64,000 nt of DNA from Phoronis australis (lineage: Eukaryota; Animalia; Phoronida). Shown piece by piece: positions 910 through 49,303 of this stretch. How positions within the stretch are numbered: position 1 is the stretch's first letter; each line of letters starts with the position of its first letter. Both the position numbers and the translations under genes were made by a program. The notes beneath the pieces are model-generated. The model saw only the letters and a program-made list of their open reading frames with translations, searched no databases and was not told the DNA's origin. The stretch is taken from NCBI GenBank assembly GCA_002633005.1, contig NMRA01000142.1, positions 664,860 through 728,859 of the forward strand, in the 5' to 3' direction.

Positions 910-2313
910 AGCCTATTTCACTAATTAAGATTCTTCATATTGTTGCCTTGATAACCTGAAGTAAGAAAGCAACAAGTTACAAAACACGACTTCAAAGCAC
1001 AAATTTGCCACAAAATTTAAAGAAATATTAGTCATTTTGTGGCACATAATCAAGCCTTGAAGAGCAGTTGGCTGTCAAACAAAAAAGCCTTTTCAAAAAT
1101 ATTTCAACTTTTTTTAGTCTAGTGTAAGATCATCTGAATGGGAAATTCACAGTAAAATAATTAGAATATTCCTAATATTTTTTGCACAACATCCTGAAAA
1201 TTGAACAAAGTTCCTTTTTTAGCAGCGTTTGTCAAAATGTATCAACGTTAAATCTTCACAAATTACAAAGTAGCCAGTTGAACATTCCTTTTAGTTCAGC
1301 AAAAGTCGCCATGTTGTTGGTGCCGCTGGAAATGAGACTAAGTCCAACGGGAATTCTCAGCACTTTTATCACTCAATAAGTAAGAACTGCAATGCTGAAA
1401 TTTGGTGGAAACTGTTGAATCGCACTGAATAGTAAGTAAAGATATGTCTTACTAATTTTCACCGTAAATTATCGGCGAAAATAATTTATACTAAGTTTTA
1501 AACTCGTAACTGATTCCGCTGTCGTCTAAGATGGCCGAACCGATCCAAACAAGTGAGCCAAATTTCGCCACAAAAATTGCAATAACTTTGCACTGCTTCG
1601 CTCGATTTTGATAATTATTCGATTTTTATTGAGTAGGATGCATTATCTTTCCGATGATAGTAGAAAATTTTTTCAAAACGAAAAAAAAATTTTGGTTCGA
1701 CTGCCCTACTCTGATCCGTTAGGAAAACTTAAAAGCTTCTTTGGGATGACAGTTTCAGTCTTTGCACTCAGTGTTGACCCATTTTTTGAGCTGTCAATAG
1801 CCTTGGACCTTGTAATCTGAGAAAATTCCAGGAGCTTCGAATTTTTAGATGAATCTGAGATATGGATGCAGCAAGAGGCAGACATCTTGCCAGAGTTGCT
1901 GTGCAGAGTCCAACACTCTTTCAATCATTCATCATGGCTTAGACAGTGTCCCAGCTGACACAAAACTGCTGTTTGCCATGCACAAAATAATGTCAAGAAC
2001 AAGAATTGATGAGACCTGGCTTGACATTCCTTAATGTCTAACTGCTGTACTCTACTGATTTATGGCCCTTGGTAATTGTCAACAATTAATACTATCCAAT
2101 ATAGTAAGTGGATGTATAAAACTTCGGCAAGCCAGCAAGATAACATCAGCTGTGAAGCAGACAACTTGAGGTGCCTCGAGGCAAGGCCAAGTGGCTGGTT
2201 TGACCGACGTCAGCGGGAGTTGACTCAGGGGTGTACCTGATAAGAATTACTAAACCTGTACTTATATCCTGCGGTTTTTGAGACTCGGTACAAGAAGGTT
2301 GGTTTTAATTCTG

Positions 2314-2319
2314 TTTATT
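2314..2319 (-). terminator. Viral polyadenylation signal AATAAA
   Basis: tttatt on the + strand at 2314-2319, ~120 nt after the last viral ORF and ~130 nt inside the terminal palindrome. Confidence 0.6.
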
Positions 2320-2441
2320 TGATCCTGTATAACATGAACAAAGCAGTCATTTTACATATGTTAAAATAGCATCGCATGGTGTAGAATGTGAACACACTTT
2401 ATATATAAAAGGAAACCATGCGTCCATATCCGCATAAGTAT

Positions 2442-2839
2442 TCAGTATAGAATTACAGAGACGTTGCAATTGATCCATAACATTCTATTAGTAATACGGC
2501 CATCCCAGAACAAATATTCTGTGCGTAATAGTGACCAAATATGATGTAAAGTACTGTCAAGTAAATCGAGTAGAATAGCTTTCAATGTTATAAAACACAG
2601 ATAATCTGCACATCGTGTTTCATCTTTACATGCTTGGCTCCAGTAATCAAAATAGTCCTCAAATTTATTACAACAATACCAAATCCATCTGCAGTATTTA
2701 CGTATACCCCTTAATATGCGGTGGTCAGTCCTCAGTATCCGTGTCAGCGAATTCGTCAATCCGCACTCTCTTGCGTGCAGGTCCCGCAGTAGGTGAGGTG
2801 CTCTTCTGTTTAACCGTCTGGGCCTTAGAATATTTGTCA
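2442..2839 (-). CDS. Putative spliced 3' accessory exon of the parvovirus (~131 aa, R/W/C/Y-rich), overlapping the VP C-terminus
   Basis: Open frame with no initiating ATG. It begins exactly at a consensus acceptor CCTGAT-AAACTTCCTGCTCTTTTCAG|TG (AG at 2841-2840), in phase 1. Confidence 0.5.
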
Positions 2840-4350
2840 CTGAAAAGAGCAGGAAGTTTATCAGGACCTTTTACATGAAGCAGGGCACTGGGTTGACGTA
2901 GGTTAGCATAAGCTGTAGGATCATCCGCAGCACCGTCGTTATTGTCAATAGGTATTGGTATTCTAGGCGCCTTAACATTGTGTAAGCCTCCAGATCCCGT
3001 AACCATTGAAGGAGTATAGGTTTGTCCTTTGTGTTCTAGTTGCCAACCAGACGAGCGTGTAGGAACGCGAATGCCCATAACATTTTCTGCCTTAGTGTGA
3101 TCATTGTCCGTGATTTGGTTAATGGACTGCTTTGCGTATTCGTAGTCAAATTCTGTCCAAATGTCACGGTCCGGGTTGACAAGGTTAGTGCTGTCATCAC
3201 GACTTCGCGGATATATTGTTACGGTCATACTCTTTTGGCAGAAGCAAAATGCTGAAATTTCAATGGGACGTCTATCGGCATCCATGACAAGTGGGAATTT
3301 AATCAGCCATGGTGGTACAGAATCATAAGCGCCCAAACCATGCGCTTGTTGGAACATCAAATGATTATGATCACCGTATGGAGTAAATTCTGTGCCAGCA
3401 ATCCGTTGTTGTTCAACAGTCACTGGTGGAGCGCCACCTACACCGCCATAGTCTTTTGGTTCATAGCTTTGTGGCAGAATCTTATGCATCATACTGGAGT
3501 ATCCTCCAAAGTTAGACCCACCGAAATTCATGTCACATAAGGCATCTTGCGCAGCAGAAGCAAATTGTAGTTTGTAGCCAAATGCGTCTTCGGCATCAGA
3601 GTCAGTCCATAGAGTTTTTGCAATGTATTGAGGATTTTTTACGTTTGGATCAAGTCTATTCCAACCCGTAATGTTAAGACCTGCTGATGTGTTGAGATTG
3701 AATCGCCTGTACGTTGGAATCTTTGGTGTGTTAGTGAAGGAATAGGTGAAGGTTTTGCTGTTCTTACCAGGACGCAGTTCGTCGATTTCTTTCAGACGCT
3801 GTAATGGTTTTGGAAACGATAGACTTTTGAGTTTTTTATGACCAGGACGTGGAACAAATATACCGACAGTAGGTAAATCTTTATAACCCGTAGCTGCACC
3901 TGCTGTATCATAAAGAACACCTTCCGTATAATGACCTGGACGCCAGCCTTTAGACCAAGTGGCATCTGGTGATCGAAAACCACAGTGTTCGTATTAAATC
4001 CTGTTATCCTGAAAACACATAACATACATTGTGTTGTTAAACTGTGTGTATGTTTCACCAGCCATTGCAGAAGCGCCTAATGCTTTCTTACGTTCCAGTG
4101 GCATCAGGTTGGAAAGGGTGCAGGAAACACTGTCTATTTGGTATTCGTCAGCTTCTCTGTTCAACTGATAGAAGTCCTCAACAGTCATGAAGTGTCCCAT
4201 ACCATTATTGTCGATGTATTTCCAGTTGACCCATGTGTTGTTGTCTTTGTAAGTAGTGTTCCATTCCTTAGGAGGTTATTGAAATTCAGGCTTGTCACAC
4301 TGTTCTATGTACATGAATGTGTTATACGTATAGGTTTTCTGATAAGCCAT
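2725..4350 (-). pseudogene. VP: Capsid protein VP (541 codons, two premature TAA stops), chaphama/ichthamaparvovirus-like
   Basis: Manual translation from ATG 4350 (MAYQKTYTYNTFMY..) stays in one frame through ORFs 3994-4200 and 2725-3531. Stops at 4276-4278 and 3994-3996. Motifs FNNTMYVMCFQD, ELRPGKNS and PPWLIKFPLV resemble chapparvovirus VP (FNNTIY..D, ELRPGKN, PQWFIK.IPL). C-terminal NLS-like PARKRVR. Confidence 0.9.
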
Positions 4351-5389
4351 TTAAGCGGTGTTCCACAACGTGTATAAGTACGTATGTCTTCCTGTGCCAA
4401 CTCTTGTGAGCGAACTAGATACCTAGATGTTGATCGTCCGTCACCTTGCTGACAATGTACGTCCACACCATGTCCAAGGCTTTACGAGAATGACGTGCCA
4501 GTTTTGTTGTTCCCAGTTTTGATGGTCCCTGTAATCCCTTTTGAAGCCACATCCACACATTCGTGACAAACCATGAATGAAGATGCATTACAGCGGCTGC
4601 TGCATCGAATTCTCGCTGAATGTCGTGTAGGTCTCCAAGTGCTTGCATAGTACTGTCTCCAAGTTCCGAACTTATGTTGGGCGTTGTGTCTACGGATGGC
4701 GTATCCATTGATCCATCCGCCTCTGATTGGTCCTGCAGGGTCATAGCGTCCATAAGTTCGTCCATCATTGTGCCAATGGCCTCTAATTCCCCCGTCCGTA
4801 AAGGTGAAGCGTTTGGTGTTATATACCTGGAACACCCGTCTTCGAAGGCGTCGCCATGGCTTGATAGTGTACATTGCAGTGTTGGATCTGTCCATTGTTC
4901 TGATTGCGGAATTGCAGGATTGGAAGGCAGTAAAGGTGTTTGTTTTCCAGTTAGTTCTGGTTGTGGAGCAGATGTCATGTCTTTGGCTGAACTCATTCTG
5001 GCAAATTCTGTTTGATGCATATCTTGCCCTGTCGGACCAATAGTTTCGTCTTCCGACAAAGGTGCGAAAGGTACGTTTGGAGCATCTTCTCTTTGTAATG
5101 GTGTCGGCAGTTTGACCGCGTCGTCCACATTGCGAGCTGTTGACACCTGACGTACACGTTCTGTATTTGTTCGTATTGCATCGCCAAGTTCCTGCACAGC
5201 AGCGACATTTTCGGCGCGAAGGTTTGCTGCATGTAGTGAGCGTCCTTGACGCATTAGATCTGCTATTTCGCGTTGCTGACGAAGTTCGTCCTTTGGAGGC
5301 AAGTTCTGTGTCTGCATCACTGGTATTGGCGTGTCTGGAAGTAGTGGACTGTTGTGTAAACCTGTTTGAAGATGTATCAAGCCATGCAT
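4322..5389 (-). CDS. NS2/NP-like ORF overprinted on the NS1 C-terminal third (324 aa to TAG 4415-4417; the frame stays open for 30 more codons to TAA 4322-4324)
   Basis: Long alternate-frame ORF in the same position as chaphamaparvovirus NP/NS2. Candidate phase-1 acceptor CTTCAAACAG|GT at 5362/5361. Confidence 0.75.
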
Positions 5390-7040
5390 GTTTGAATTTG
5401 ATGATCATAATTCGCTGACGTAGCGGCATTTCTTGATCAGGAACATATCGCCATATTTTATGATTAGACGTCATTATCAAGGGACAACCGTCCCAATCTT
5501 CAACCGCTCTATTCTTAACATTGATTTTGCAAGGACTACCTTCTAATATTAATTTAGCTTTCTCAACAGCTTCAGGAGTAAACACAAGCTCCTCCATTAG
5601 ACCAATGCGACGTTTTCCAACAAGACTGGCCCATAAGAATTGAACGCTATCAAGTACAACTTCACCACACTGTGTACCAAATTGTCGACAGATACCACGA
5701 GCATAATAGCTTTTACCGGCATTAGATTTGCCTTCTAACAATATACTGTTAGTTTTTCCATTGTCAGATTGCAGTATACGAGACATTTGTATGTGTATCT
5801 GATGGATTTGTTCACGCGTGTAACGTTGATGTTTTAATACTTTGTATGACCATTCATGATCAGGTGCATATTGTGCAAATTGTTCAAGAATGTTTTTGTT
5901 TGCGGTAATGGCAACAAGTTGGTATCGACGACAATTGTCTACAGTAGATTGAAAGTACGGTATCGATAATCTGTCTAATACCCATTGGTTATCTAAGTGA
6001 ATTAAGTCTTCCAAGGACATTGCGCCTGTTTCATTCATCTTAGCTAGAACGTCGTCAGTTAAAATACGACGAGCAGACAGTTTTGGTTGAACACTGGTAT
6101 AGTGATTGTTGTCAGGATTGCAATAGAACTTAGCAACCTGCAGTAATGGCCAACTAGAGCTCATGACTTGTTCGACGTTTTTGCAGAAGTATTTCATAAG
6201 TCCACCGAAATTACGCACCTTCTCAGCCTTCATATACTTGAAGGCTATGCAGGACAGGTTGAACTCTTTTGTTTTTTTACTCCAGAATCTGTCCAAAGTG
6301 ATTTTGAAGTTATCGACACGTGATTGTGTATGAAACATAAGATGGAAGTGTGGACGTCCATACTTTGTGCTTTCGCGTATACCAAAAAACTTAAATTTTG
6401 GTGGAAACAAAGCCATGAGTTCCTTCAATGAAAAATTTATTTTCAAATTTCCGTACATGTCCTCGACAGCTATAACAACCGATAACCAACTGGCATTAAG
6501 TTCATCTTGAATATAAGTATCAACATCAGTTTGAGTACAATCAAAACGTTTATCGTTAGTAAAGTCTATATCCGAAACAGTAGCAGAATGGATGTCCAAG
6601 AACCATGCGTTTATTGCAGTTTGATCAGTGCATGTTGAATTGCTTGCGGATGTTTTTGATACATCTCCGCAAGTCGAATCATGTCCAGCGCTCTGGCCGG
6701 CAGGCAGTGTGTTTTGTTGTATCACTATTGCAGTATTTGCGCATGGCCAAGTTTTAATCCATGTTGCCATTGTTTCGCGACGTTTGTAGTCGTCGTTTTG
6801 CAGTGTGAGTAGAGCTATCTCCGTGTGCTCTTTTTCTATTGGCAGAGTGCATTCGTCCTCCCACATGTGCATCGTCCAGCGACATAAAGGCGTCAATGTT
6901 CGAACCGTTCCGACCAGGTTGTTGTGTTCTTTGATGTATTTGCGCATTGTTTTCGCATTCTTGAGCCCCGCTCGTTCTTTCAATAGGTTGAGCAGTGCTT
7001 TAGACAGTATCACGAAATATTGGTCACAGTTAGACTGCAT
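4482..7040 (-). CDS. NS1: Parvoviral NS1/Rep (HUH endonuclease + SF3 helicase), uninterrupted 852 aa; ~913 aa if spliced to exon 7627-7795
   Basis: HUH motif PHFHLMF, catalytic Tyr motif KYFCK, Walker A GKSNAGKS, Walker B GLMEE, B' KLILEGSPCKINVKN and motif C IMTSN. Confidence 0.97.
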   Translation of the reverse strand: MQSNCDQYFVILSKALLNLLKERAGLKNAKTMRKYIKEHNNLVGTVRTLTPLCRWTMHMWEDECTLPIEKEHTEIALLTLQNDDYKRRETMATWIKTWPCANTAIVIQQNTLPAGQSAGHDSTCGDVSKTSASNSTCTDQTAINAWFLDIHSATVSDIDFTNDKRFDCTQTDVDTYIQDELNASWLSVVIAVEDMYGNLKINFSLKELMALFPPKFKFFGIRESTKYGRPHFHLMFHTQSRVDNFKITLDRFWSKKTKEFNLSCIAFKYMKAEKVRNFGGLMKYFCKNVEQVMSSSWPLLQVAKFYCNPDNNHYTSVQPKLSARRILTDDVLAKMNETGAMSLEDLIHLDNQWVLDRLSIPYFQSTVDNCRRYQLVAITANKNILEQFAQYAPDHEWSYKVLKHQRYTREQIHQIHIQMSRILQSDNGKTNSILLEGKSNAGKSYYARGICRQFGTQCGEVVLDSVQFLWASLVGKRRIGLMEELVFTPEAVEKAKLILEGSPCKINVKNRAVEDWDGCPLIMTSNHKIWRYVPDQEMPLRQRIMIIKFKHAWLDTSSNRFTQQSTTSRHANTSDADTELASKGRTSSATRNSRSNASRTLTTCSKPSRRKCRCCAGTWRCNTNKYRTCTSGVNSSQCGRRGQTADTITKRRCSKRTFRTFVGRRNYWSDRARYASNRICQNEFSQRHDICSTTRTNWKTNTFTAFQSCNSAIRTMDRSNTAMYTIKPWRRLRRRVFQVYNTKRFTFTDGGIRGHWHNDGRTYGRYDPAGPIRGGWINGYAIRRHNAQHKFGTWRQYYASTWRPTRHSARIRCSSRCNASSFMVCHECVDVASKGITGTIKTGNNKTGTSFS

Positions 7041-7067
7041 ACGTTGTTTTTTAGCTAAAATGAAAAA

Positions 7068-7619
7068 TTACTTACATGTAACAAATGCGCCAACCATTGG
7101 ATCCCAATTACGTCCACCAGGTGCTTGAACCCATGGTATGAAATTCGGTATTCTTAACGCACGTCTATATCTATTGATTTCTGCTTGATCTAATATTTGT
7201 TTACGTACTGCAGGATCCGTAACTGGTGTTCCATCTATATAATAATTGCCTGATGGATAAAATCCATAATATGTTCCTGTCTTTTCCTGCGCTTCTGTTA
7301 TTTTAGCATATTGCGCCGGCGTACCTTTGCCTTTATATTTAGGCATTTTTGGATATTGTACTCCTACGAGAGTTTCTCCAACGTATTTTACACCTATTCC
7401 TGCAAGTCCTATACAACTATGCCAATTGCCTTCTAAACAATCTTGTCCGAATGATCCTGTAGCTTTTCTATCAGCAGCACGTACATCGTCCGATGTAGAA
7501 GCCTGATCGTACTCTAAGTCATGCACTTTAGCTATTGCATCATCTGAATCAATAGGTTCTTCGTTAGTAGTAATATCAGTACCAGGACCTATCCACTTAT
7601 GACCAGGTAAATGTGGCAT
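7068..7619 (-). CDS. Parvoviral phospholipase A2 (VP1u-type) protein, 183 aa, located upstream of NS1
   Basis: Ca-binding loop LPGHKWIGPG, catalytic DAIAKVHDLEY and downstream AD, followed by GNWHSCIGLAGIGVK..E...GV.YP resembling densovirus VP1u. Confidence 0.93.
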   Translation of the reverse strand: MPHLPGHKWIGPGTDITTNEEPIDSDDAIAKVHDLEYDQASTSDDVRAADRKATGSFGQDCLEGNWHSCIGLAGIGVKYVGETLVGVQYPKMPKYKGKGTPAQYAKITEAQEKTGTYYGFYPSGNYYIDGTPVTDPAVRKQILDQAEINRYRRALRIPNFIPWVQAPGGRNWDPMVGAFVTCK

Positions 7620-7626
7620 AACTTAC

Positions 7627-7795
7627 CGACTGGTTCGTCCGTTGCTGCGTTAGGATCTATATTCTCCTTGTTTTCATCGTCCAAGTTTACTACTTCCGGT
7701 GAAGGTTGTGAAGGCTGTGCAGTGCAGGATGCGTCTACTTGTTCAGCTACTGCAATAACGTCTTCATCCGAAGCGTCTTCCCATATACCAGACAT
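7627..7795 (-). CDS. Acidic first coding exon (56 codons + 1 nt) predicted to splice in frame to NS1
   Basis: ATG 7795; donor CG|GTAAGT at 7627/7626; acceptor TTTTTCATTTTAG|CT at 7055/7054. The join reads ..DEPV-A-KKQR-MQSN in the NS1 frame. Confidence 0.75.
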
Positions 7796-8010
7796 CTATA
7801 ACAATTAAGCAACGTATCGTCTCATCCTTCATAATCTAATATGTCATAGACCTAATGTTAAGAAGGTCTTGACCATAACATTGCTAACTGATAAATACTA
7901 AATGTTCTTACCGTCCTTTTTGTCCTTAATAGCCTGAAAACCCGAAAACTGGCTGAGTCTCAATCCCTAGCAACAACTTTACGTCCTTTCTAAACGAGCG
8001 CTTTGCAGGA

Positions 8011-8042
8011 ACTGACGCTATCTTGACCTGCAGCGCCTTATA
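8011..8042 (-). promoter_or_regulatory. Viral left-end promoter: TATA box and initiator
   Basis: Minus-strand TATAA at 8042-8038 and Inr TCAGT at 8015-8011 (A at 8013, 29 nt downstream). A leader donor CG|GTAAGA at 7912/7911 and an acceptor TTGTTATAG|ATG at 7796/7795 follow. Confidence 0.7.
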
Positions 8043-8070
8043 TCGGCCCGGCCTTAAGCGGCCTCGAGGA

Positions 8071-8537
8071 GGCTCTGGGATGTTTGAATTGCCTTTTCTA
8101 GTGTTAGTGAATCTCCACTATTAATTAGTTTTTCTTGTATTTCCTCGTCTTTTACTCCAAAGACAATTTGGTCGCGTATCATTTCATCTGGAGGCAAGTC
8201 ACTAACTGTTCGATTGTTTCCTCCCCTTGTACAGCATTGTTGAACTTGTAGCTTTCAAACATTGAGTTGTGACGCGGTTGGACATGATCTGCAAAGCGTT
8301 TGTAATTTGCTTCGAGGTTGTCTTTCTCGGATTCTTCTAATGTCCAAGTATTAAATATGCCTCTCCCTTTGTCATTGACATATAGTAATAAATACATAAA
8401 CTTTTCCTTCTCCGTTTTCTTTGCCAATGGTCCAGCGAAGATCAAATCAACATGTTGTTGAGAAAGTCTCCAAGCTTCTACCAGGTTGCTCGAATCCCAG
8501 TCAATTGACGGCGGGACAGTCCTCCTGAATGCTCCAT
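8071..8537 (-). mobile_element. gag: Ty3/Gypsy LTR retrotransposon gag, frameshifted and truncated at the viral junction
   Basis: IFAGPL..KEK..YLLL.V..KGR.IFNTW, then DEMIRDQIVFGVKDEEIQEKLINSGDSLTLEKAIQ ending at ~8071. PBS-like TGGTGTCAG at 8550-8542 lies just before ATG 8537. Confidence 0.85.
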
Positions 8538-8550
8538 TTTCCTGACACCA

Positions 8551-8805
8551 TGTAATATTTTGTGTACTATCAAGACGAAGGCAAAAGAAACTAGATTATC
8601 TATTAAATGAACTGAACAGTATGATGTACAAAGCGTGACTGAGGCTACACAGCTACTAGCATGCACTATAAACATAATGTTGGTGGCCAAGACTAATTAA
8701 TGTGGTCGCCATGATTAATTACTCTGACAGTCAGTCTAAACAAATACTGGAAGTGGACAATGAGCTCATCATGTTACAAACACCAAATCAGCAAAGACCA
8801 TAACA
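8551..8805 (-). repeat. Probable 5' LTR of the Gypsy element
   Basis: Ends ..ATTACA immediately before the PBS. The candidate start TGTTAT at 8805 is uncertain because no second LTR is visible. Confidence 0.45.
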
Positions 8806-9013
8806 TGAAATAAAGATAATTAACCCAAGTAATCAGGGAGAGACTAAGAGTTGATTGGAACACATGAAACCTTACGGCTAAATCCTATTCAAATAAGCCT
8901 TGCATTATCCGACACAGAGATAAAGAGAACTGGTCTATGAGTTTAAGAGACTCTGATTCGAACGCGGTATATTTCAAACCCTTTGCATTTCCGCTTCGTC
9001 GTTGAACTTGTGT

Positions 9014-9361
9014 CTACCTCAACATTCTCTGCACAGTTGGTTCTAGAGCCAAGTAAACTGCTTTCAACGTTTCATAGTTCTTGAAAACTGTAAAAAACAG
9101 GATGTTTGCAGGATCCGATGAAGAAGGTTCCAGGCCAAACAGCTGCTTATTCATCATTGCATTCTCAGTAGCCAACTCTTCAATGTGCTTCAAAGCATCT
9201 TCTAAAAGTTCTCGGTCACTTCTCAGGTTTCTGTTGTAGTGGTGGTCTTTGGATACACACGGAGCCTCAATCACCTTGTCATCTTCTACGTCGCAACATT
9301 CCCCGTCTCTCCCATTCACTAGCTCCACGCTGAAAAAATTTAGTTTTTGCATGCCTATCAT
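9014..9361 (-). mobile_element. ISL2EU/Harbinger-type transposase fragment
   Basis: DHHY, a coiled coil, then FGLE...DPANILFFTVFKNYETLKAVY, resembling the 'FYTGF.SY' region of these transposases. Confidence 0.5.
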
Positions 9362-9909
9362 TATTCACTCTGATTAACATTCAGAACATATGAAGTGATG
9401 TAAGCCTGCATTTTGTCAACAGTTTTCTTCAAATCTGGGCTTATAACAGTTTCAAATCAAGAAACAGCCAGCTCCATCCATACATCATAATTCTCTAGAC
9501 TCTCTGAGCATAAATGACAATATTCCGTTCCTTGTTTAAAATACGACTTGACTAAAATGATTACATAAAGGATGGCTCTACTTTGGCTATGTTGCTATTT
9601 GCAAGAAGCTCGGCAAAATCCCATAACCCAGATCACATTCTAGAATCCAACGTCGTTGCATGGCAAACTTTACGCTTGTCAGGTTGCAATTAAAAAACCC
9701 CTTGATTCTAGACTAATTACACCTGCTTTACGTAATTTTTTTGTGCCGATGGCAAACAGTTACACAAGCAGGCACATAGTTTATGTGGTCAGATTGCATA
9801 CTCAGTTGATTTATTCATATATGATAGAACTCTGTTTGTATTAACACCATTTATTGGACAGAATGTCCTCACTCAGTTCGAGTCTGCAAGTGCACTTCAG
9901 TTTGAAGGC

Positions 9910-10544
9910 TCAGATGATACTCTTAGTGTCCAGAGGAATATCCCTGTGGACGTTCATGAGCGCCTGGGCAGAGAGTTGATCGTTTGTCATTGTTGAGTGC
10001 AAGAACATCTTCAGGTTTCGTAATGTGCTGAAGGGTCTTTCTGCTTCACAGGAAGTGTGCAGATGATCTTTACTATGGTGTGGACGTTTGGAGACTTGAC
10101 TTGACTGCATTCCTTGATAGCTTGGTGTGACGTTGCTAGTGTCTGCTCTAGTGCCAAGGTTTTCCAGTTGTTCTAAAATAAACATTTAAAGATGTCAATA
10201 TCAAATTTCAGTTTAGGTTTCAGTTTTATAGTCAAATGTTCACATCTCATGTACATAATTGGAATGTAGACGTTTCTTACCTTCCACAAAACGAACTCAG
10301 TATCCAGAGCTTCAGAACATGAACACTCAATTATCATTGTTTTATTACCTTCGTCACTTTGCGAACAATGTGGCTCACACAGCTGACTGTTACCTCCTGA
10401 AAGAAGATTTTTAAAATAAACTAACACTTCTTGTTTTAAGGCATTTAAACAGTTTAACCGCATGTGATTTAAAAATGGAAAATGTGTTACATTACAAGGA
10501 TTCAAACTCGCATCCTTTTGGTCGGAGTGTACATGCTCTTTCAT
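9910..10544 (-). mobile_element. hAT transposase C-terminal (dimerisation domain) remnant
   Basis: TSCEAERPFSTLRNLKMFLHSTMTNDQLSAQALMNVHRDI matches the hAT dimerisation consensus. Degenerate fragments lie upstream. Confidence 0.85.
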
Positions 10545-15960: not shown

Positions 15961-18794
15961 TCCCCAAAATCTACTCGGGCTCTAGATAATGGGGGATAAC
16001 GACTTCGCCATGTAATAATCTATATATATCTTTTCTCAATTGTTGGGTTTATCGAGACGCAATAAATAAGTGCAGAGTATTACCGAAAAACAAATGGTCC
16101 CACTTAACACGATTAATACAGGCAACGTGGAACTATGCAATCGTCAATAAATTACAACTTAATATAATTGTATTGAGCTAATGAATGGACTCATGTGCAA
16201 CAAGTGTAAACTTTTTCCCAATCTTTTCAAAAAGTTTGACAAAAACTGACTGCAGCGCTATTTTTTAGTAGTGCATATCTTCTTGTAATTAACATTCAAT
16301 CTTCTTAGAAATACACACATTATTATTTATTTCAATGAAGGTAATACCAAGTAACTTTCACAAGCAACAAATAATTGCAGAAGGAACATTTGATCAAAAC
16401 AGTCATATATTTTCAATTTCCATCTTCAGTTTCTTGTTCTTTAGAATGAGATTTTCGATTTCTAAGTCCAATTTCCTTTCTTCTTTTATTCTTCTCCGTT
16501 TGTTTGGCTTCTAATTCATTTTCCAGTTTTCTTTTCTTTAGTTCCAGGACCTCCTTTGATATGGCGTTTAATTCATTACTGGTTACATTTTTTTCCTCAA
16601 TGGCCTCTCCGAAGCGAAGGTGACTGGAGATTCCGAAAGCGGGTGGCTAGCAGAAAGACATGGTGATGAACTAGTGAGAATTGTGTCCCAAGAAGTAATC
16701 AGTTTTTGAGTGCTAGGCAATGATATAGTTTCAGATGAGACGGCTGCTTGTGGTGATTGGTTCTCGGCAATTTGAGCAGTTGTTGGAGTGAAAATTCCTG
16801 AAATGAAGTTAAAAGTGCATAATTAAAGTGTTTTGATATTCATACAAACGAGACCGATCACAAGCAGGAAATTATCCTAATCATTGTCTGATCTTATGGA
16901 GCTCAATTTACTACGCCGTCTAGGAGTGTCAACATATGTTTTGAGGCATGGTGGGTGTTGGGAGAGGGTACTGAACACGACGGGAGATGACATTTCCAGT
17001 TCCCATCTCTCAGACTCATCGAATACCCGGCCGCTGCTTATTTGGGGCCCCGTGCATTTCCAGCAACATTCCATCCTGGAATGCACTCTACCGGCGAAAC
17101 GCGAAGCAGTTGTGCAAAATTGGGTTGTGTCCCAAGACTGAGTGATAGATGGCGGCAATTCTTCACTCAGTGCGGAATATTCCCAAGGCAAAAATTGAAC
17201 TTCTAATTAAGAAAATGCTAATTGAGGAAATAAAAATGTAACATTGTAAACATGTTTAGGGTAAGGTATAGATTTGTTACATACCATTTTTTATGGCCCT
17301 AAGTGGATATTAAAAAAGTGCGGAACCGTTCCGCACACTTTGAGACTAAATAATATTCTCTCATTTGAGAAAATATCGCCTTTTTTAAACTTACTTATAT
17401 CTCTTGTGATTGAATAAGGCAACAACTTCTGGACTTGGTCTAGTACAGAAAAAATTGTCAACTGCAAAAATGTCACCAGTTACAAATACCAAGTTGCTTT
17501 ACTGTTGGCGATGTAGTCGCTCTTTCACTTTTTCAATGACCTTCATCATTTAATGTCACGGTGTTTCTCAACTAACCAACTACATTGCCATGAATACATG
17601 CATTACCAACAACAGTTGTGCATACACTTGGGCTATCATGACTAACTTCTTCATACTAATGTCATGGTTCAAGAAATAAAGAGTTCTTTAAAATAAGGAA
17701 TCGGGTAATAAATGAAGTTATATAAAAAGATTACAAAAGATATCTTCTCTAAATTAATATAACTACATTGAGGTCTTCACCTTGAACGAAATAAATAAGG
17801 TTACAAATATATACATGCATGTAAATACAACTTTCCATGGTCTTGAATACAATGACATGGGCAATAAATGTTATGGAGTGCTTTCCTTACCAAGGGAACA
17901 TAGATATCTTCAACTAGTTTTTCCAATATATAAAACCATGTTCTTAAAAACAGATCTACTAACACTTCAACTAATGTTTTTAAGTACTGCATATTAATGT
18001 CATGGTTCAAGAAATAAAGAGTTCTTTAAAATAAGGAATGATAGGTAATAAATGGAGTTATATAAAATACTGTGAGGTCATAACGTTGAGCAAAATAAAT
18101 AACGTTAGAAACGTATACATACAATTACAGCAAATGCAATTTTTCATGGTTATGGGTAGAAACACATGCGGAATAAATGTTGCGGATTGCCTTCGTTACC
18201 AAGGGCTACATCTCATCAAATATTTTCCAACCTATAAAGCCCATTATAACAGCACCATAAAAAACTTGCAAAATTCATTTCTCTAAAAACGTAATACTGT
18301 GAGGTCGTAACATTGAGCAAAATAAATAAGGCTATAAAAAAGTTTATACGCGCTAATGCAGTTTTTCATGGTCTTGGATACAATCACACTAGTAATAAAT
18401 GTTATTGTATTTGCATTACGATAACAATAAAACTTTTTGACAAAAAAATAATAAATAAATATTCTGGACTACCTTCATTACATATCTCTTCAAACATTTT
18501 GTCAAACCTATCAAACCACTTTTTAAAAACCGTGATGAGCAAAGAAATCCTATGTACATGAAAATTGTGCTTGGGAGCGTGTAATCACTTGACCTGTCGT
18601 TTCAGACAGATAATTTTTTTTGCACTTGATTAGCAACTTCTTGGTTAAAAATAACGTTTTTTAAAAATCAACACCTAATGATTGTCGAGACACTAACTTC
18701 GTATACGGACAACATAATCATGTTGGAAATATGTGAAGAAACAGGAGCTTTAGTAATGAAGGCAGTTGGTTACCTTCAACTGGAAATGTGTAAT

Positions 18795-19545
18795 CTACGC
18801 TCGATCATTCGCAGCTTGAATTTTCTTTGCTTGCTTTTGTTCATTGTTTAGCTTAAATGTTATTGCTTTCAAGATATCCTCATTCAGAGGTGTTTGATTA
18901 AGTACCAAAAAGCTATCATAACATAACCTATGCTTGATCATTCGCAACTTGAATTTTCTTAGTTTGCTTTTTTTCATTGTTCAGCCTAAATGTTATTGCT
19001 TTCAAGATACCCTCCTTTAGAGGTGTTGGATTAAATACCAAAGAGCTGTCTTGACGTAACCTATGCTTGATCTTTCGCAATTTGAATTTTCTTTGCTTGC
19101 TTTTGTTCATTGTTCGGCTTAAATGTTATTGCTTTCAAGATATCCTCCTTCAGAGGTGTTGGATTAAATACCAAAAAGCTATCATAACATAACCTATGCT
19201 TGATCATTCACAACTTGAATTTTCTTGGTTTGCTTTTGTTCATTGTTCAGCTTAAATGTTATTGCTTTCAAGATATCCTCCTTCAGAGGTTTTGGATTAA
19301 ATATCAAAAAGCCATCGTAATGTAACCTATGCCTGATCATTCAAGCAACTTGAATTTTCTTTGCTTGCTTTTGTTCATTGTTCAGCTTAAATGTTATTGC
19401 TTTCAAGATATCCTCCTTCAGACATTTTGGATTAAATATCAAAAAGCTATCGTAACGTAACCTATGCTTGATCATTCAAGCAACTTGAATTTTCTTTGCT
19501 TGCTTTTGTTCATTGTTCAGCTTAAATGTTATTGCTTTCAAGATA
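18795..19545. repeat. Tandem satellite, 133-134 bp unit, >=5.6 copies, running into the gap
   Basis: ctatgcttgatc recurs at 18928, 19061 and 19194. Confidence 0.95.
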
Positions 19546-20399
19546 NNNNNNNNNNNNNNNNNNNNNNNNNNNNNNNNNNNNNNNNNNNNNNNNNNNNNNN
19601 NNNNNNNNNTTGGCTTCTAATTCATTTTCCAGTTTTCTTTTCTTTAGTTCCAGGACCTCCTTTGATATGGCGTTTAATTCATCACTGGTTACATTTTTTT
19701 CCTCAATGGCCTCTCCGAAGCGAAGGTGACTGGAGATTCCGAAAGCGGGTGGCTAGCAGAAAGACATGGTGATGAACTAGTGAGAATTGTGTCCCAAGAA
19801 GTAGTGGTGATTGGTTCTCGGCAATTTGAGCAGTTGTTGGAGTGAAAATTCCTGAAATGAAGTTAAAAGTGCATAATTAAAGTGTTTTGATATTCATACA
19901 AACGAGACCGATCACAAGCAAGAAATTATCCTAATCATTGTCTGATCTTATGAAGCTCAATTTACTTAGTCGTCTAGGAGTGTCAACATATGTTTTGAGG
20001 CATGGTGTGGGTTGGGAGAGGGTACTGAACACGACGGGAGATGACGTTTCCAGTTCCCATCTCTCAGACTCATCGAATACCCGGCCGCTTCTTATTTGGG
20101 GCCCCGTGCATTTCCAGCAACATTCCATCCTGGAATGCACTCTGCCGGCGAAACGCAAAGCAGTTGTGCAAAATTGGGTTGTGTCCCAAGACTGAGTGAT
20201 AGATGGCGGCAATTCTTGACTCAAGAAGCTTTGTTCGTGAGTAACTAAGACACTGAAAAGTTATGTAGGGCTTTGGTTTTGTGTATGCTGGTTTTTGTAG
20301 AGTTTTCGTTAGCAATGACATAGGCCTACCTACCGATAAAACTGCTGTGACTAATACTGTTGGTTACACGTGTCAGATGAAATCATGAATTTGTCCATG

Positions 20400-20830
20400 T
20401 TCCCAGCAGCGGGATTTTGAAACTGTTCGCCATTTGAAAACCAGGACCAAGGAACATCTAAATTCTGACAGTAATTCACATGTAAATATTCACCTACAGA
20501 GTTCCAATCATTGTTATCAGCAGTGCTCTTTCAATGACTTTGCAATAATATACCAGGCAGTAACAACAAAGGAGCTTAAAATTCCTGAGGCTTTACATAT
20601 CAGTTGGTGCAAGCCCAATCTCAATAGGCAACTGACACCACAGGTTGTCATTGTCAACTGTTGGTCTAGTTCATTGTCACTCCCTGTAACTGACTGTATC
20701 TGTTCTTCATTACTTGTTGCTGGGCCTAGCTAGGTGGCCACTGTATTATGACTTCTGAGGATGGTGTTTAATAAATGACACCGAAACACTTTTTAGTCAA
20801 GTTTTAAAACCGTTGTTGTTTTCTTGATTT
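20400..20830 (+). mobile_element. Penelope-like element 3' end (GIY-YIG endonuclease C-terminus + pseudo-LTR)
   Basis: HLKTRTKEH...SHVNIHL...F.II....ELKIPEALHISWCKPNLNRQ. Confidence 0.85.
20750..20803 (+). ncRNA. Type I hammerhead ribozyme of the Penelope pseudo-LTR
   Basis: ACTT-CTGAGGA-T-GGTGT[loop]ACACC-GAAAC-actttta-GTC-AAGT: core CUGANGA and GAAA, stem II GGTGT/ACACC, stem I ACTT/AAGT, GUC cleavage triplet at 20796-20798. Confidence 0.7.
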
Positions 20831-22887
20831 GTTTGGCTTTGAAAGTGTCAACAATTGCAAAAGTTTTAGTAACGTCTAAATATACCTCCTCACAGGAATC
20901 CTGAACAATTTTGAGAAAATGCAAACCTGAGCATAGTTATTTCTTGTAAGCTGAATGTTGAAGCTATTTATTGTGAAATGTTTTAAATGCCCTAAGCAAT
21001 GTATTATTTGGTTTTTCAACATCATACGTTTAAACTTTAATATATTATTGAGAGTGGGCACATTATACTCTCAAGTACTATTGAGAATGGAATGTAATTC
21101 ATGTTTATTGGGCTGGGAGAAAATTTTAGTCCTGTGCTAAACTTTTCTGTTTGTGGAACCCTGCTGGAACTTTCACATTGATTTTTAAAAATAAATTATT
21201 ATTTTGATTATTATTCCACAAAATATACATAATATTTCTCAAGTCACAGTATTCCACAAAACTTGCGCAGTGCGTAATATTTCGCAAAATCTGCGGAATA
21301 TTCCGCAAGGCAAAAATTGAACTTCTAATTACGAAAATGCTAATTGAGGAAATAAAAATGTAACATTGTAAACATGTTTAAGGTAAGGTATAGATTTGTT
21401 ACATACCATTTTTTATGGCCCTAAGTGGATATTAAAAAAGTGCGGAACCGTTCCGCACACTTTGAGACTAAATAATATTGTCTCATTTGAGAAAATATCG
21501 CCTTATTTTAAACTTACTTATATCTCTTGTGATTGAATAAGGCAACAACTTCTGGACTTGAATTAGTACAGAAAAAATTGTCAACTGCAAAAATGTCACC
21601 AGTTACAAATACCAAGGTGCTTTACTGTTGGCGATGTAGTCGCTCTTTCACTTTTTCAATGACCTTCATCATTTAATGTCACGGTGTTTCTCAACTAACC
21701 AACTACATTGCCATGAATACATGCATTACCAACAACAGTTCTGCATACATTTGGGCTATCATGACTACCTTCTTCATACTAATGTCATGGTTCAAGAAAT
21801 AAAGAGTTCTTTAACATAAGGAATCTGGTAATCAATGAAGTTATATAAAAGATTACAAAAGATATCTTCTCTAAATTAATATAACTACATTGAGGTCTTA
21901 ACCTTGAACGAAATAAATAAGGTTACAAATATATACATACATGTAAATAAAACTTTCCATGGTCTTGAATACAATGACATGGGCAATAAATGTTATGGAG
22001 TGCCTTCCTTACCAAGGGAACATAGATATCTTCAACTAGTTTTTCCAATATATAAAACCATGTTCTTAAAAACAGATCTACTAACACTTCAACTAATGTT
22101 TTTAAGTACTACATATTAATGTCATGGTTCAAGAAATAAAGAGTTCTTTAAAATAAGGAATGATAGGTAATAAATGGAGTTATATAAAATACTGTGAGGT
22201 CATAACGTTGAGAAAAATAAATAACGGTAGAAACATATACATACAATTACAGCAAATGCAATTTTTCATGGTTATGGGTACAAAACACATGCGAAATAAA
22301 TGTTGCGGATTGCCTTCGTTACCAAGGGCTACATCTCATCAAATATTTTGCAACCTATAAAGCCCATTATAACAGCACCATAAAAAAACTTGCAAAATTC
22401 GTTTCTCTAAAAACGTAATACTGTGAGGTCGTAACATTGAGCAAAATAAATAAGGCTATAAAAAAGTTTATACACGCTAATGCAGTTTTTCATGGTCTTG
22501 GATACAGTCACACTAGTAATAAATATTATTGTATTTGCATTACGATAACAATAAAACTTTTTGACAAAAAAAATAATAAATAAATATTCTGGACTACCTT
22601 CATTACATATCTCTTCAAACATTTTGTCAAACCTATCAAACCACTACTACATGAAAATTGTGCTTGGGAGCGTGTAATCACTTGACCTGCCGTTTCAGAC
22701 AGATAAATTTTTTTGCACTTGATTAGCAACTTCTTGGTTGAAAATAAGGTTTTTTAAAAATCAACACCTAATGATTGTTGAGACACTAACTTCGTATACG
22801 GACAACATAATCATGTTAGAAATATGTGAAGAAACAGGAGCCTTAGTAATGAAGGCAGTTGGTTACCTTCAACTGGAAATGTGTAAT

Positions 22888-23665
22888 CTATGCTCGATCA
22901 TTCGCAGCTTGAATTTTCTTTGCTTGCATTTGTTCATTGTTTAGCTTAAATGTTATTGCTTTCAAGATATCCTCATTCAGAGGTGTTGGATTAAGTACCA
23001 AAAAGCTATCATAACATAACCTATGCTTGATCATTCACAACTTGAATTTTCTTGGTTTGCTTTTGTTCATTGTTCAGCCTAAATGTTATTGCTTTCAAGA
23101 TACCCTCCTTTAAAGGTGTTGGATTAAATACCAAGGAGCTGTCTTGACGTAAACTATGCTTGATCTTTCGCAATTTGAATTTTCTTTGCTTGCTTTTGTT
23201 CATTGTTCAGCTTAAATGTTATTGCTTTCAAGATATCCTCCTTCAGAGGTGTTGGATAAAATGCTAAAAAGCTATCTTAACATAACCTATGCTTGATCAT
23301 TCGCAATTTGAATTTTCTTGGCTTGCTTTTGTTCATTGTTCTGCTTAAATGTTATTGCTTTCAAGATATCTTCCTTCAGAGGTTTTGAATTAAATATCAA
23401 AAGCTATCGTAACGTAACCTATGTCTGATCTTTCAAGCAACTTGAATTTTCTTTGGTTGCTTTTGTTCATTGTTCGGCTTAAATGTTATTGCTTTCAAGA
23501 TATCCTCCTTCAGAGATTTTGGATTTAATATCAAAAAGCTATCGTAACGTAACCTATGCCTGATCATTCAAGCAACTTGAATTTTCTTTGCTTGCCTTTG
23601 TTCATTGTTCAGCTTTAATGTTATTGCTTTTAAGATATCCTCCTTCAGAGGTTTTGGATTAAATA
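22888..23665. repeat. Second array of the 133-134 bp satellite (~5.8 copies)
   Basis: Same unit as 18795-19545. Confidence 0.95.
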
Positions 23666-23889
23666 CCTTCTGAACATGAGCTGAAATAAATCACACCCAA
23701 GAGCTTGGTTAGTAAGATAGATCTGGTGAACAGTTTAATGTTAATAACATTGATCTCGTAAGCAGTTTAATGTTTAATAAAAAGCATTATTTTCCCTGTT
23801 ATTCTATCTAAAATGAAAATCAAATTAGTCTTTGGATTGTCATCAAATCGAATTTGGAAGCTTGATCGATCTACAGCCAGCTCTTAACT

Positions 23890-26221: not shown

Positions 26222-27336
26222 TTGAATTTGAGATGGCCAATATTGCCTATTCTTAAAATTTGGTGCAAGCCCCGTCCTTGAGCAAAGTAATTTTTCACTA
26301 TTCCAAACTTGAAAATTCTTTGTTGCAAGGTTATTCACTTGTGTCCTATCATTGATTGTATCACATCGTTTCAACCCTAATATTAAGTTTGTTTCTGTAA
26401 TAACGTAAATGGCATATTGTGAATTAGAACTTAGCTGGCAAAGTTTGTTCACATGCTTGACGGCCTAGAAAATTATTATACCCATTTAGAGTGGACTACA
26501 AAATGGACCCTTTTGTGGGGAGCTTCAATGAAAATGTCACGTTTCATGTGGGTTGTTCTAGAAAAGCCACGTCGATTCCAGAAATCGCTTCTTTTCACAG
26601 GGATTCTTGGACGGATGTTTTTTATCTCATTATTCCTGAAACAGTGGAAGAGCAGATGCCATGTTGTCAAAAATGTGTACATCTTTCTGACGGATTGTAA
26701 AAGGAACGAAACTCTTTGGAAAGTTTCGAACTCCGAAAGTGATTTAACGTACGGTCTGTTTAGTTGGTGATTGCTTTCNTTGAATTTGAGATGGCCAATA
26801 TTGCCTATTCTTAAAATTTGGTGCAAGCCCCGTCCTTGAGCAAAGTAATTTTTCACTATTCCAAACTTGAAAATTGTTTGTTGCAAGGTTATTCACTTGT
26901 GTCCTATCATTGATTGTATCACATCGTTTCAACCCTAATATTAAGTTTGTTTCTGTAATAACGTAAATGGAATATTGTGAATTAGAACTTAGCTGGCAAA
27001 GTTTGTTCACATGCTTGACGGCCTAGAAACTTATTATACCCATTTAGAGTGGACTACAAAATGGACCCTTTTGTGGGGAGCTTCAATGAAAATGTCACGT
27101 TTCATGTGGGTTGTTCTAGAAAAGCCACATCGATTCCAGAAATCGCTTCTTTTCACAGGGATTCTTGGACGGATGTTTTTTATCTCATTATTCCTGAAAC
27201 AGTGGAAGAGCAGATGCCATGTTGTCAAAAATGTGTACATCTTTCTGAAGGATTGTAAAAGGAACGAAACTCTTTGGAAAGTTTCGAACTCCGAAAGTGA
27301 TTTAACGTACGGTCTGTTTAGTTGGTGATTGCTTTC
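26222..27336. repeat. 558-bp tandem duplication joined at a single N (26779)
   Basis: ORFs 26453 and 27011 are almost identical and offset by 558. Confidence 0.9.
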
Positions 27337-27440
27337 CATCAGAGACCACCAATGAAATTCAACTCGGGTACAACTTGGAACATTGTATACTGCTGTAAAT
27401 GATGGCAAAATGTCAGAGAGAATTTTGGAGTGATTTAATA

Positions 27441-28080
27441 TTCCGCCCTCTCTCTAAGGGCCTTGTTCACTTACTGGATTTCTGAGTCTGGTTGACCTGC
27501 TTCTAGAATTAGGTCATGCAACGCTGGTAGCTGTAACCCTTGATCCCTGTTCTCCAGGATGAAGGAACACTCCAAACTTGATATACCCACAAGCATAGGG
27601 GAACACACCCTAAACACTGTACACACCATCGACAATTTTTCAGACAGTAACGCCATGGTCTTTGTCAGAGAGGAACACTGGCACTCAAGGAAGGCCAAGG
27701 AGGCCATCTACATTAAAAGCAGACATCAGGGCTCAAGGGTTACAGCTCCCAGCTGTGTACGACCTATTTCTGCATGCGCGCACCAAGCCCAAAAAATAGG
27801 AGGCTCAAAATTTTGAGAATGTGGACCTTCTACTATAAAAACAGTTCAGAGCTATGAATTGTGCATTCGCCAAATTCCTTTCTGGTGGTTTTTTTGTCTG
27901 GTTTTATACTTTTTTCGGACTTTGCGTTTCTCTGAGGCAGACCTTTTTGCCCACTTCTCTAAAAGGGAGGCTTGTTCGAATGCCGAGAGCCCCCCTGGGT
28001 GCGCGCATGTTCTAGAACCAAGTCAACCTGGCGTGGGAAATCAAGTCAGTGAACAAGGCCCTTATAAGAGAGAGGGCGGA
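27441..28080 (+). mobile_element. Penelope-like GIY-YIG fragment bracketed by ~70-bp inverted repeats
   Basis: RMKEH...SIGEH...HTID...REEHWHSRKAKEAIYIK. tccgccctctctc..aagggccttgttcact at ~27442 is inverted as agtgaacaaggccctt..gagagagggcgga ending 28080. Confidence 0.7.
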
Positions 28081-47800: not shown

Positions 47801-49303
47801 TAATTATTTAACAATGACCGTGTATAAATACAACAGTCTAGCATGAATTCTAACTAAACAATTTTTGTTTAGTACAGTAAAAATTCTTCAATTTGGGCAC
47901 GGAAACTCTCACAAAAATGAATGTTTTGTCATTCCAGAATTTTGGACAAGGACAATTTGGCATTCATCATACTTCTGAAACTTCAGACACTGCGTTTTCA
48001 AGAGACACAGAGTGGGTAATTTTGCCATGGTACCAGTGATTCTTGAACTTGGAATGACCAATATTGTCGATTTCGAGAATGTGAGACATAAGCTCCACTC
48101 ATGAGCAAAATAATTAATTTTTCAGTCTCGTATTTGATGATAATTTTTACCTTAATACAGAACTCATTGTGATTCATTCGCAGGATCTTCTATTCCACAA
48201 GCCACTTCACCGAATTCAGGACATTTTAAAGCCTTTTTACATATGTGATTCGGATTCTGAATTCATATTAGGCTTTAAAATAACCGTACAACCCAAACCT
48301 CAGGGTGAAAGCAAACATGCATCGAGGCAACCCAGTTCCCACCAGCATGCAACTTTACATATGTTTTCAATGGCTAAATGTTAACTGAAGTTCAATAAAG
48401 ATCATCATGTGTATGCTACGACTGACAACATGTAGCTTACGATTGCATTGATATAACCAAATTATATTTGTCGAATGTTTTGCACTAAAACGTGACAATG
48501 TTTCGGATAAAAAACTGGACCTAGCTGAGTGAGCGATCGAGGTAAGATCGAAAACCCAAACATAGCCTCCTTCCTTCAATTACTTAACAGATGTAATCAG
48601 GATGGACAATAATTTAATTCACCCTCCTGAAACTTGTTGGCTTTCAAACCCCAAAAATATGATAATGACATTGGCTCCGCCTCTGTCATTGTCATATGTT
48701 GGGATCTGAAAACCAACATATTGACCTCAGTAGAAGTCAATAATTATACAAGAAAGCACACACAGAATAGATTTCATTGCAGCACAAGGACCAACAAAAC
48801 AACAATGGACAAGAATTTCAAGTCCATGTCCCAAATTTTTGCACTAAACCATGACAGAATATGAAATATCGACACCTTAAACAATATAGTAAAATAAGGA
48901 AAAGCCAACAGTTGGTTGATAAATGGCCACCAATGGTGTCTCTTGTGACGGTTAACCATATATATGGCTGAGCTGAAGGAGAAACCAGCAAACTGGATTG
49001 AATAGACAAGAGACTGATAAGAACCAAAGTGAAGCCAACTGATGAGTACAGGTAAGTCTAGATGTTTATTTGACACTTCTGACAACACACCGACATGGGA
49101 GCCAATTACAAAAAGATGGCAACAGGAAGAAATCAATAATAACGCAAATCAACTTCAAACATTTCAGCATTGCACATACAAGATACAGGTTCCAAGATTT
49201 CGCATTCTTAAAGTGTACAGTCATTTCTTGCTCGTTACAATCTCATTACTAATTTAGACCTTCAATAGTTTCAATGATTGCCGACCGTCATTGTAATCCC
49301 TTT
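44881..49303. repeat. ~2.2-kb tandem duplication joined at a single N (47095)
   Basis: Identical ORFs at 46833 and 49042. Copy 2 restarts with cctggagtaaagtagttcgg right after the N. Confidence 0.9.

Follow-up and report, generated by a model that had tools for sequence, protein, structure and literature searches.

A parvovirus-derived element in Phoronis australis with a chapparvovirus-type capsid gene and a separate phospholipase A2 reading frame of densoviral type

How parvoviruses without a capsid phospholipase A2 (PLA2) manage is an open question in the field, and two published cases have regained a densoviral PLA2 as a separate gene. Statements on the literature below refer to the available passages of the cited papers. 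In AdSDV, the segmented densovirus of Acheta domesticus, the PLA2 encoded by vpORF3 is not in capsids (PMC10267136). In the megaparvovirus lineage (SwaBA-MePV-1-like), published in 2026 with 11 viruses and eight endogenous viral elements of beetles, a 5' PLA2 open reading frame (ORF) ending in a splice donor is accompanied by a hypothetical ORF, an NS1 of 561-611 residues and a hamaparvovirus-like capsid protein (VP) of 504-577 residues (PMC13426907). The Hamavirinae are delimited by the absence of PLA2 and a genome of about 4.0-4.5 kb (PMC13426907, PMC9896142), endogenous chapparvovirus elements of arthropods have VPs without PLA2 (10.1101/571109), and parvovirus-related sequences are reported across invertebrates, in the available passages without the plan described here (PMC5013282, PMC11357303). 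Here we describe a parvovirus-derived element of 5,897 nt in the phoronid Phoronis australis, located at positions 2172-8068 of a 64,000-nt stretch of contig NMRA01000142.1 (the window, meaning the whole stretch analysed) with all its parts on the minus strand. Its ORFs and their homologies, its integration and its lesions are direct observations. We consider it rather probable, judging from the sequence, that the element is an integrated and decaying parvovirus with a chapparvovirus-type capsid and NP, that it likely stands for an undescribed deep branch, and that it likely captured a densoviral PLA2 that would be made as a separate, non-capsid protein by alternative splicing.

Along the minus strand, the parts follow in the order TATA box, acidic leader, PLA2 ORF, NS1 with an overprinted ORF, capsid gene, 3' ORF and polyadenylation (polyA) signal:

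2172..8068, minus strand: integrated parvovirus-derived element, 5,897 nt, without terminal hairpins, one copy in the window
8037..8042, minus strand: TATA-like box, TATAAG, read from the sequence, 26 nt within the right end
7796..7911, minus strand: predicted 5' untranslated region (UTR) intron, with an acceptor abutting the leader ATG and a predicted donor at 7911 ranking 3 of 299 GT
7627..7795, minus strand: acidic leader exon of 56 codons and 1 nt with a phase-1 donor at its end (7626, rank 5 of 299 GT), no Pfam match
7068..7619, minus strand: stand-alone PLA2 ORF, 183 codons, Pfam match, phase-1 donor at 7075 (rank 1 of 299)
4482..7067, minus strand: NS1 frame, 861 codons, first ATG at 7040, phase-1 acceptor at 7055 (rank 8 of 315 AG), Parvo_NS1 in Pfam (E 6e-16)
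4415..5404, minus strand: NP/NS2 homologue overprinted on the C-terminal part of NS1, 329 codons, with acceptors at 5361 and 5334 (both phase 1), identified by tblastn and profiles
2725..4350, minus strand: chapparvovirus-type capsid gene, 541 codons, interrupted by stops at 4278-4276 (codon 25) and 3996-3994 (codon 119), identified by PDB match, profile and alignments
2442..2870, minus strand: 3' ORF, 142 codons, overlapping the capsid end, rich in Cys and Trp, phase-1 acceptor at 2840 (rank 1 of 315 AG)
2314..2319, minus strand: AATAAA polyadenylation signal, read from the sequence

A first-pass annotation of this stretch had proposed a single-orientation cassette at 2172..8069 with a promoter, a polyA site and the order leader - PLA2 - NS1/NS2 - VP - 3' ORF. 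The cassette is real, with its parts at 2172-8068; both signals are present (TATAAG at 8042-8037, AATAAA at 2319-2314), and the order is borne out by the ORFs and their homologies.

The capsid gene carries the motifs FNNTMY, ELRPGKN and PPWLIK, and the chaphama-/ichthamaparvovirus type that had been assigned to this 541-codon frame from such motifs is upheld. With X at its stop codons, its only real match in the PDB is 9NEK (E 8.4e-10), the capsid of a Syngnathus scovelli chapparvovirus (PMC12115719); a profile built from 11 related capsids aligns with it from Met1 onwards (E 1.7e-17), and identity to three reference capsids is about 24%. Its alignments identify the product as a homologue of the parvoviral jelly-roll VP, which starts at the first strand, has neither PLA2 nor an N-terminal extension, and ends in a C-terminal tail of about 160 residues. 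An AlphaFold model was unusable (mean predicted local distance difference test score, pLDDT, 29), and a word-index protein search with the last 422 residues found nothing among 2,326 candidates.

The NP ORFs of four of the five reference hamavirus genomes match the overprinted ORF at one spot (tblastn), and among 671 window frames it was the only match to NP profiles (E 1.9e-5 and 1.4e-8), so the overprinted frame reported earlier can be named as an NP/NS2 homologue; an atlas search with NP gave no match. The overprint is non-random: when NS1 was resampled synonymously 1000 times, no alternative frame stayed open for 300 codons (306 observed within NS1; median 124, maximum 297). NS1 itself has the HFH nuclease motif and the Walker A, B, B' and C motifs of superfamily 3 (SF3) helicases in alignment A1. 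Its stop lies 132 nt upstream of the capsid ATG, whereas in the reference genome L002 the NS1 frame overlaps the capsid start, and this terminal stop is probably a lesion. The 3' ORF is of a length matched in two of 2000 shuffles, and no homologue was found in a Pfam scan of the window ORFs.

Chaphamaparvovirus and Ichthamaparvovirus resemble the element in having homologous VP and NP/NS2, an NP overprinted on the NS1 C-terminus, and a short acidic 5' exon with a phase-1 donor and a small 5' intron (predicted in the element). They differ in their genomes of 4.0-4.4 kb without PLA2 (the first-pass annotation had likewise described chaphama- and ichthamaparvovirus genomes as usually shorter and lacking PLA2), and in an NS1 only 24-27% identical to that of the element. 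Of the Hamavirinae traits, a VP starting at the first strand and an overprinted NP are found in the element, which also contains a PLA2 ORF and measures 5.9 kb without termini. With respect to MKPV and other hamaviruses, it departs in having a TATA box (MKPV has none), in having no good acceptor before VP and in its extra 3' ORF.

The PLA2 ORF (Pfam Phospholip_A2_4, E 4.6e-8; length matched in one of 2000 shuffles) aligns with two densoviral sequences. Over 87 residues (4-90) it is 48% identical (BLASTP E 5e-26) to the PLA2 ORF of the ambisense densovirus L037, whose capsid matches Denso_VP4 (E 8e-57) and whose separate PLA2 ORF has a phase-1 donor at its end as well. To VP1 of the monosense densovirus L041, the element ORF is 47% identical over 98 residues from Met1, the first eight residues being the same. 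The best matches to adeno-associated virus are far weaker (E 0.002). L037 came from a motif scan that returned four loci and L041 from a second scan; the scan pattern fixed the core spacing, and the identity to L037 extends through residues 50-90, mostly beyond the pattern. The residues aligned with L037 and L041 include a WIGPG loop, H33-D34, Y37 and D50, with the loop Trp in place of the usual Tyr. The ORF carries the calcium loop, HD dyad and downstream Tyr/Asp of parvoviral PLA2, and catalysis is predicted. Residues 1-96 are of the type of the densoviral VP1 unique region (VP1u), while no match was found for residues 97-183; a supposed similarity between the C-terminal half of the ORF and the N-terminus of the L037 capsid yielded no alignment and was dropped. 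A word-index protein search with the PLA2 ORF found nothing among 94 candidates, an atlas search gave PLA2-like clusters at 0.87-0.89 that serve only as leads, and the AlphaFold model was unusable (mean pLDDT 33).

Separately, a parvovirus-type PLA2 motif was seen at L040:1490-1945 (Pfam E 1e-4) and L038:161-367 (tblastn E 4e-6), on contigs of 2.7-2.8 kb with Rep-like and capsid-like ORFs; these would be small viruses of non-parvoviral appearance with PLA2.

In the Densovirinae, represented by L037 (ambisense, split VP) and L041 (monosense), the VP1u PLA2 is 47-48% identical to that of the element and the L037 exon has a donor of the same phase, but PLA2 there belongs to the capsid cassette. 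The NS1 proteins of L037 and L041 are 22% and 29% identical to that of the element over about 115 residues, in the helicase only; no match to the element capsid was found in either virus, and that capsid has no Denso_VP4 match in Pfam. A grouping of NS1 and VP with Densovirinae, which the earlier annotation had set as evidence against its view, is not seen; by similarity, the PLA2 module does group there. Because PLA2 alone does so, gene capture is indicated rather than a densoviral identity of the whole element, and the PLA2 ORF was likely taken from the capsid gene of a densovirus, a distant parvovirus group. AdSDV vpORF3 is similar in being a Densovirinae-derived VP1u PLA2 in a virus with PLA2-less relatives, but AdSDV is of Brevihama type and bipartite, and its PLA2 lies downstream of VP under its own promoter (PMC10267136).

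An NS1 search against 1.84 billion representatives gave 402 matches at E <= 0.001 and a single one below 1e-30, P0002, a protein of 811 residues that is 33% identical to the element NS1 and is encoded on a contig of 5,592 nt. The element and P0002 formed a clade in all five NS1 trees (support 100/99; 100/97 under a mixture model; Shimodaira-Hasegawa-like approximate likelihood ratio, SH-aLRT, 99 and 98 in two others; and, in the SF3-only tree of 156 of 157 rows, 92 for a group that includes P0053). P0053 was rejected as a relative, since it joined the element in the SF3-only tree and not in the longer trees, which were built on hand-picked sets of 54, 30 and 33 rows. The element and P0002 fall outside the supported clades of the reference genomes L002 and L003 and of L001 (L002 matches the mapped MKPV splice positions, and L001 the 9NEK capsid segments), and NS1 does not group with distant SF3-only sets. 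Relative to the hama-like rows, the element fell within a 30-row group in one tree (SH-aLRT 91), met an unsettled backbone in a second, and stood with P0002 beside a 27-row group (88/94) of all hama-like rows in the mixture-model tree. The genus line is at least 35-40% NS1 identity together with a single branch (PMC9896142). At 24-27% identity to the five reference genomes, and outside their supported clades, the element belongs by its NS1 to neither Chaphamaparvovirus nor Ichthamaparvovirus, and its size and PLA2 content likewise set it apart from both. These values, with the nearest NS1 at 33%, agree with the divergent lineage that had been proposed. In the capsid tree, the element sits on a long branch (3.09) that places nothing. 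A search with alignment A1 among proteins of 1,428-4,075 residues, a length range poorly suited to it, found nothing.

Two further groups of sequences came to light during these searches. P0144 and P0135 have NS1 proteins of 574 and 608 residues on contigs of 6,225 and 5,519 nt and form a clade of their own (100/100); they are possibly further megaparvovirus-like genomes. L024-L032 and L034 are fragmented and rearranged chapparvovirus-like elements with non-viral flanks in two metagenome assemblies. Among them, L032 has a leader resembling that of L002, an NS1 of 808 codons that groups with P0056 at 100/99, NP and a capsid start, without PLA2.

The best-surviving alternative, which we nevertheless consider rather unlikely, is that the element is a divergent member of the megaparvovirus lineage, with one shared PLA2 capture, NP kept and the second cassette absent. 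The common traits are rare ones (PMC13426907): both are monosense and about 6 kb long, with a separate 5' PLA2 ORF ending in a splice donor, a PLA2-less hama-like VP of similar size whose Met1 lies at the first strand and whose C-terminal tail is long (146 residues there, about 160 here), likely inverted termini, and a position near but not firmly within the Hamavirinae. NS1 identity within that lineage is itself only 18-50%, save for one near-identical pair (PMC13426907), and approximately unbiased (AU) tests reject no grouping of the element with the guessed members (p 0.24 for P0144/P0135, p 0.31 for the P0145 group). However, the megaparvovirus NS1 has 561-611 residues, with a second large ORF between it and PLA2 and no NP mentioned in the available passages, whereas the element has an NS1 of more than 850 codons with an overprinted NP, a PLA2 ORF that abuts NS1, a leader before PLA2 and a 3' ORF after VP. 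Moreover, no tree joined it to P0144/P0135 or to P0145 (labelled 'Mops bat parvovirus', which appears in Table S5 of PMC13426907), sequences whose membership is guessed. In any case, with a 5' PLA2 ORF, NS1 and a hama-like capsid in print (PMC13426907), the gene order is not unique to the element and not undescribed. A literature search covering few subscription papers did not find the exact plan (leader, PLA2, NS1 with NP, VP, 3' ORF) described.

The predicted splice sites suggest how PLA2 might be expressed. Applied to L002, our crude consensus score gives its top two donor ranks to 433 and 487, in that order, and its top acceptor rank to 2775; of these, 433 and 2775 are mapped splice sites of MKPV, a virus without a TATA box (PMC6999912). 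In the element, one promoter at the TATA box would give one transcript, from which the small 5'-UTR intron would strip the five ATGs upstream of the leader ATG, all of which it contains. From its ATG at 7795, the leader ORF reaches 7589 if unspliced (68 codons). Both coding donors (leader 7626, PLA2 7075) are phase 1, as are the acceptors of NS1, NP (5361 and 5334, ranks 21 and 13 of 315 AG) and the 3' ORF, and the leader exon could thus be joined to any of these three, much as the MKPV 5' exons are spliced to NS2 and VP (PMC6999912). The PLA2 ORF fills the leader-NS1 intron, with its ATG 7 nt after the donor and its stop 13 nt before the acceptor. Were the leader donor skipped, PLA2 would be made alone, or fused through its own donor to NP or the 3' ORF. 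Since the PLA2 donor and the NS1 acceptor are 20 nt apart, PLA2 could not join NS1 by splicing. As its exon is in frame with NP or the 3' ORF and not with the capsid, PLA2 is likely non-structural and separate from the capsid; it would work outside the particle on host membranes, for egress or lysis of the cell, the role put forward for AdSDV vpORF3.

We regard it as improbable that the PLA2 exon is spliced to the capsid, giving a minor VP1 as in split-capsid densoviruses and an enzyme carried on the particle for endosomal escape. AdDV does make VP1 by such splicing (PMC10267136), the closest PLA2, that of L037, is a split-VP exon with a donor of the same phase, and the donor at the end of PLA2 is the best-scoring one of the element. 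In the element, however, an in-frame stop lies directly upstream of the capsid ATG, the nearby phase-1 acceptors rank low among the 315 AG (132, 136 and 263 on its upstream side, 44 downstream), and the capsid aligns from Met1 to hamavirus capsids that have no N-terminal extension. The stop and the weak acceptors make a PLA2-capsid fusion unlikely.

The preferred reading also entails a true insertion, on which the ends of the element and contigs from four DNA runs (X1, X2 and X4 among them) bear. The ends are as follows:

8069..8072, plus strand: right-hand GAGG of a flanking 4-bp direct repeat (possible target-site duplication), read from the sequence, with the junction bridged by contigs in four of four runs
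2168..2171, plus strand: GAGG, left copy of the same repeat, read from the sequence
8049..8068, no strand assigned: right terminal remnant, read from the sequence, in which the inward reading has CCTCGAGGC and AAGGCC in common with the left end, perhaps as what is left of an inverted terminal repeat
2172..2190, no strand assigned: left terminal remnant, read from the sequence, with a 12-bp palindrome at its start

No terminal hairpins were found: either end folds no better than shuffles (z -0.16 to -1.23), indicating that they are missing. The genome had been called near-complete; it is well preserved, but the term excludes its termini. Absence of hairpins is expected for a truncated insertion, and short shared stubs remain. 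The CpG observed/expected ratio is 0.91 in the element and 0.61 in the remaining window, and such slight depletion fits a young insertion.

At the right junction (8068|8069), a contig bridges into 180 host bases in every run (7698-8248, 7669-8248, 6979-8248 and 7814-8248), and at the left end a contig links 2174 to window position 931 in every run, skipping 1,242 bases; contigs also span the PLA2-NS1 border. In each run, depth in the element is mostly near that of the flank at 8801-9600 (32-39 and 46 in X1; about 9 and 11 in X4), although contig depth is not a copy number. With its right junction bridged and its left end tied to host DNA, the element is integrated, and its endogenous state, already proposed in the first pass, is supported in the one sample.

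The contigs also reveal a second version that differs from the window by about 0.4-1.2%. The long contigs listed have 34 of 5,628, 50 of 5,579, 19 of 4,372 and 63 of 5,376 differing positions, while some pieces are identical to the window and others have gaps of 3-24 letters. We infer that these are two alleles of one insertion, mosaically merged, one with a shorter left flank; duplications of 92-99% identity, some of them next to N gaps, occur in the window. In all four runs, the second version differs within both broken capsid codons and within the NS1 stop (place 4484), which makes the lesions likely allele-specific. Of the NS1 once called intact, the long open frame stands; its C-terminal end is doubtful, with a stop that is early relative to L002 and altered in the second version. 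The genome likely integrated into a repeat through end-joining at a staggered break and lost its hairpins in doing so; the insertion is likely present on both homologues, where it decays without function.

Two observations on coverage concern the same region. At the left end of the element, the second version lacks positions 932-2173 in four of four runs (joint 931 to 2174), either through a deletion polymorphism of 1.2 kb or as a different haplotype. Contigs break off at either end of the stretch 6390-7696, where X1 and X2 show about 1.5 times the depth of adjacent sequence and one X4 contig has 46 unlike letters at one end; this is likely a further partial copy elsewhere that contains the entire PLA2 ORF.

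That partial copy is one ground for a further alternative, that the PLA2 ORF stands outside the viral gene set as a densovirus fragment recombined in shortly before or after integration. The absence of a second genome with the same order in the viral-contig and metagenome scans, and of a match for residues 97-183, would also suit it. Nevertheless, we judge it very unlikely: the ORF fits the leader-NS1 intron closely, is unbroken and keeps its catalytic residues, and the contig of the closest NS1 relative, P0002, has room for such an ORF. An assembly artefact that fused a free virus to host contigs is hardly credible given junction contigs in four of four runs with depth tracking the host flank, capsid stop codons, lost hairpins and a 4-bp flanking repeat, even though haplotype-like duplications do occur beside N gaps elsewhere in the window.

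Several points weigh against the reading that we prefer, namely a decaying parvovirus of a deep branch with a captured, separately made PLA2. The backbone of the NS1 tree shifts with model and region and its deep order is unsupported, and the AU tests leave both groupings named above standing. Scans of viral contigs (with the element NS1, P0002, A4 and A5) and of metagenomes (A3) returned no relative and none with the same gene order, and a PLA2 motif occurs in 0 of the 13 metagenome loci whose capsid is related (22-36%), four of which include a 5' region. The DNA runs are of one sample, possibly the source of the window, in which 65-82% of sampled words are present, and none of the contig rows listed crosses the window's own left junction (2171|2172). 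All splice sites are predictions of an untrained consensus score, picked after the ORFs had been seen. The predicted map accounts neither for PLA2 translation, as the PLA2 start has four ATGs ahead of it and no abutting acceptor, nor for a capsid mRNA, as the best acceptor within 130 nt upstream of the capsid ATG ranks 59, whereas hamaviruses normally have one just upstream of VP (10.1101/571109).

The surroundings of the element are repetitive. A very high-copy host repeat occupies 905-1700, with a summed contig depth of up to 85,000 in X1 and a sharp edge near 905; a script found no terminal inverted repeat in it. The right flank (8069-8595, minus strand), which we take to be Ty3/gypsy gag-like, gave no match in Pfam; it has a frame that continues in register with one open in the left flank (2171 leftwards) once one GAGG copy is discounted, as would be seen for an insertion into a retrotransposon remnant. 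Large direct duplications at 16504-23700, 26222-27450 and 45085-49300 are 92-100% identical, lie at or near N positions 19546-19609, 26779 and 47095, and are probably uncollapsed haplotypes; the first contains 133-bp tandem arrays. Outside the element, Pfam scans (77 ORFs plus others) detected no host gene in the window, only a weak hAT transposase dimerisation fragment at 9913-10185 on the minus strand (E 2.6e-4), and Rfam gave no match in the window.

The element offers a third genome plan for the regain of PLA2, in which NP is retained, the captured gene has a clear densoviral relative, and the splice layout makes predictions on which fusion proteins occur. It thereby provides a test of one capture as opposed to repeated captures, and adds a deep NS1 branch where intermediates are needed according to PMC13426907. 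Even within the megaparvovirus clade, it would still widen the gene content of that lineage. More tentatively, and as a possibility that we hold short of probable, the element and P0002 may form a basal branch of the chapparvovirus-like viruses with the rank of a subfamily. Such a branch would have acquired a densoviral PLA2 exon together with its donor, independently of AdSDV and megaparvoviruses, placed it inside the NS1 intron and joined it by splicing to a new, Cys-rich 3' exon, giving a non-structural membrane-acting protein. If so, the regain of PLA2 by PLA2-less parvoviruses would be a convergence that happened three times.

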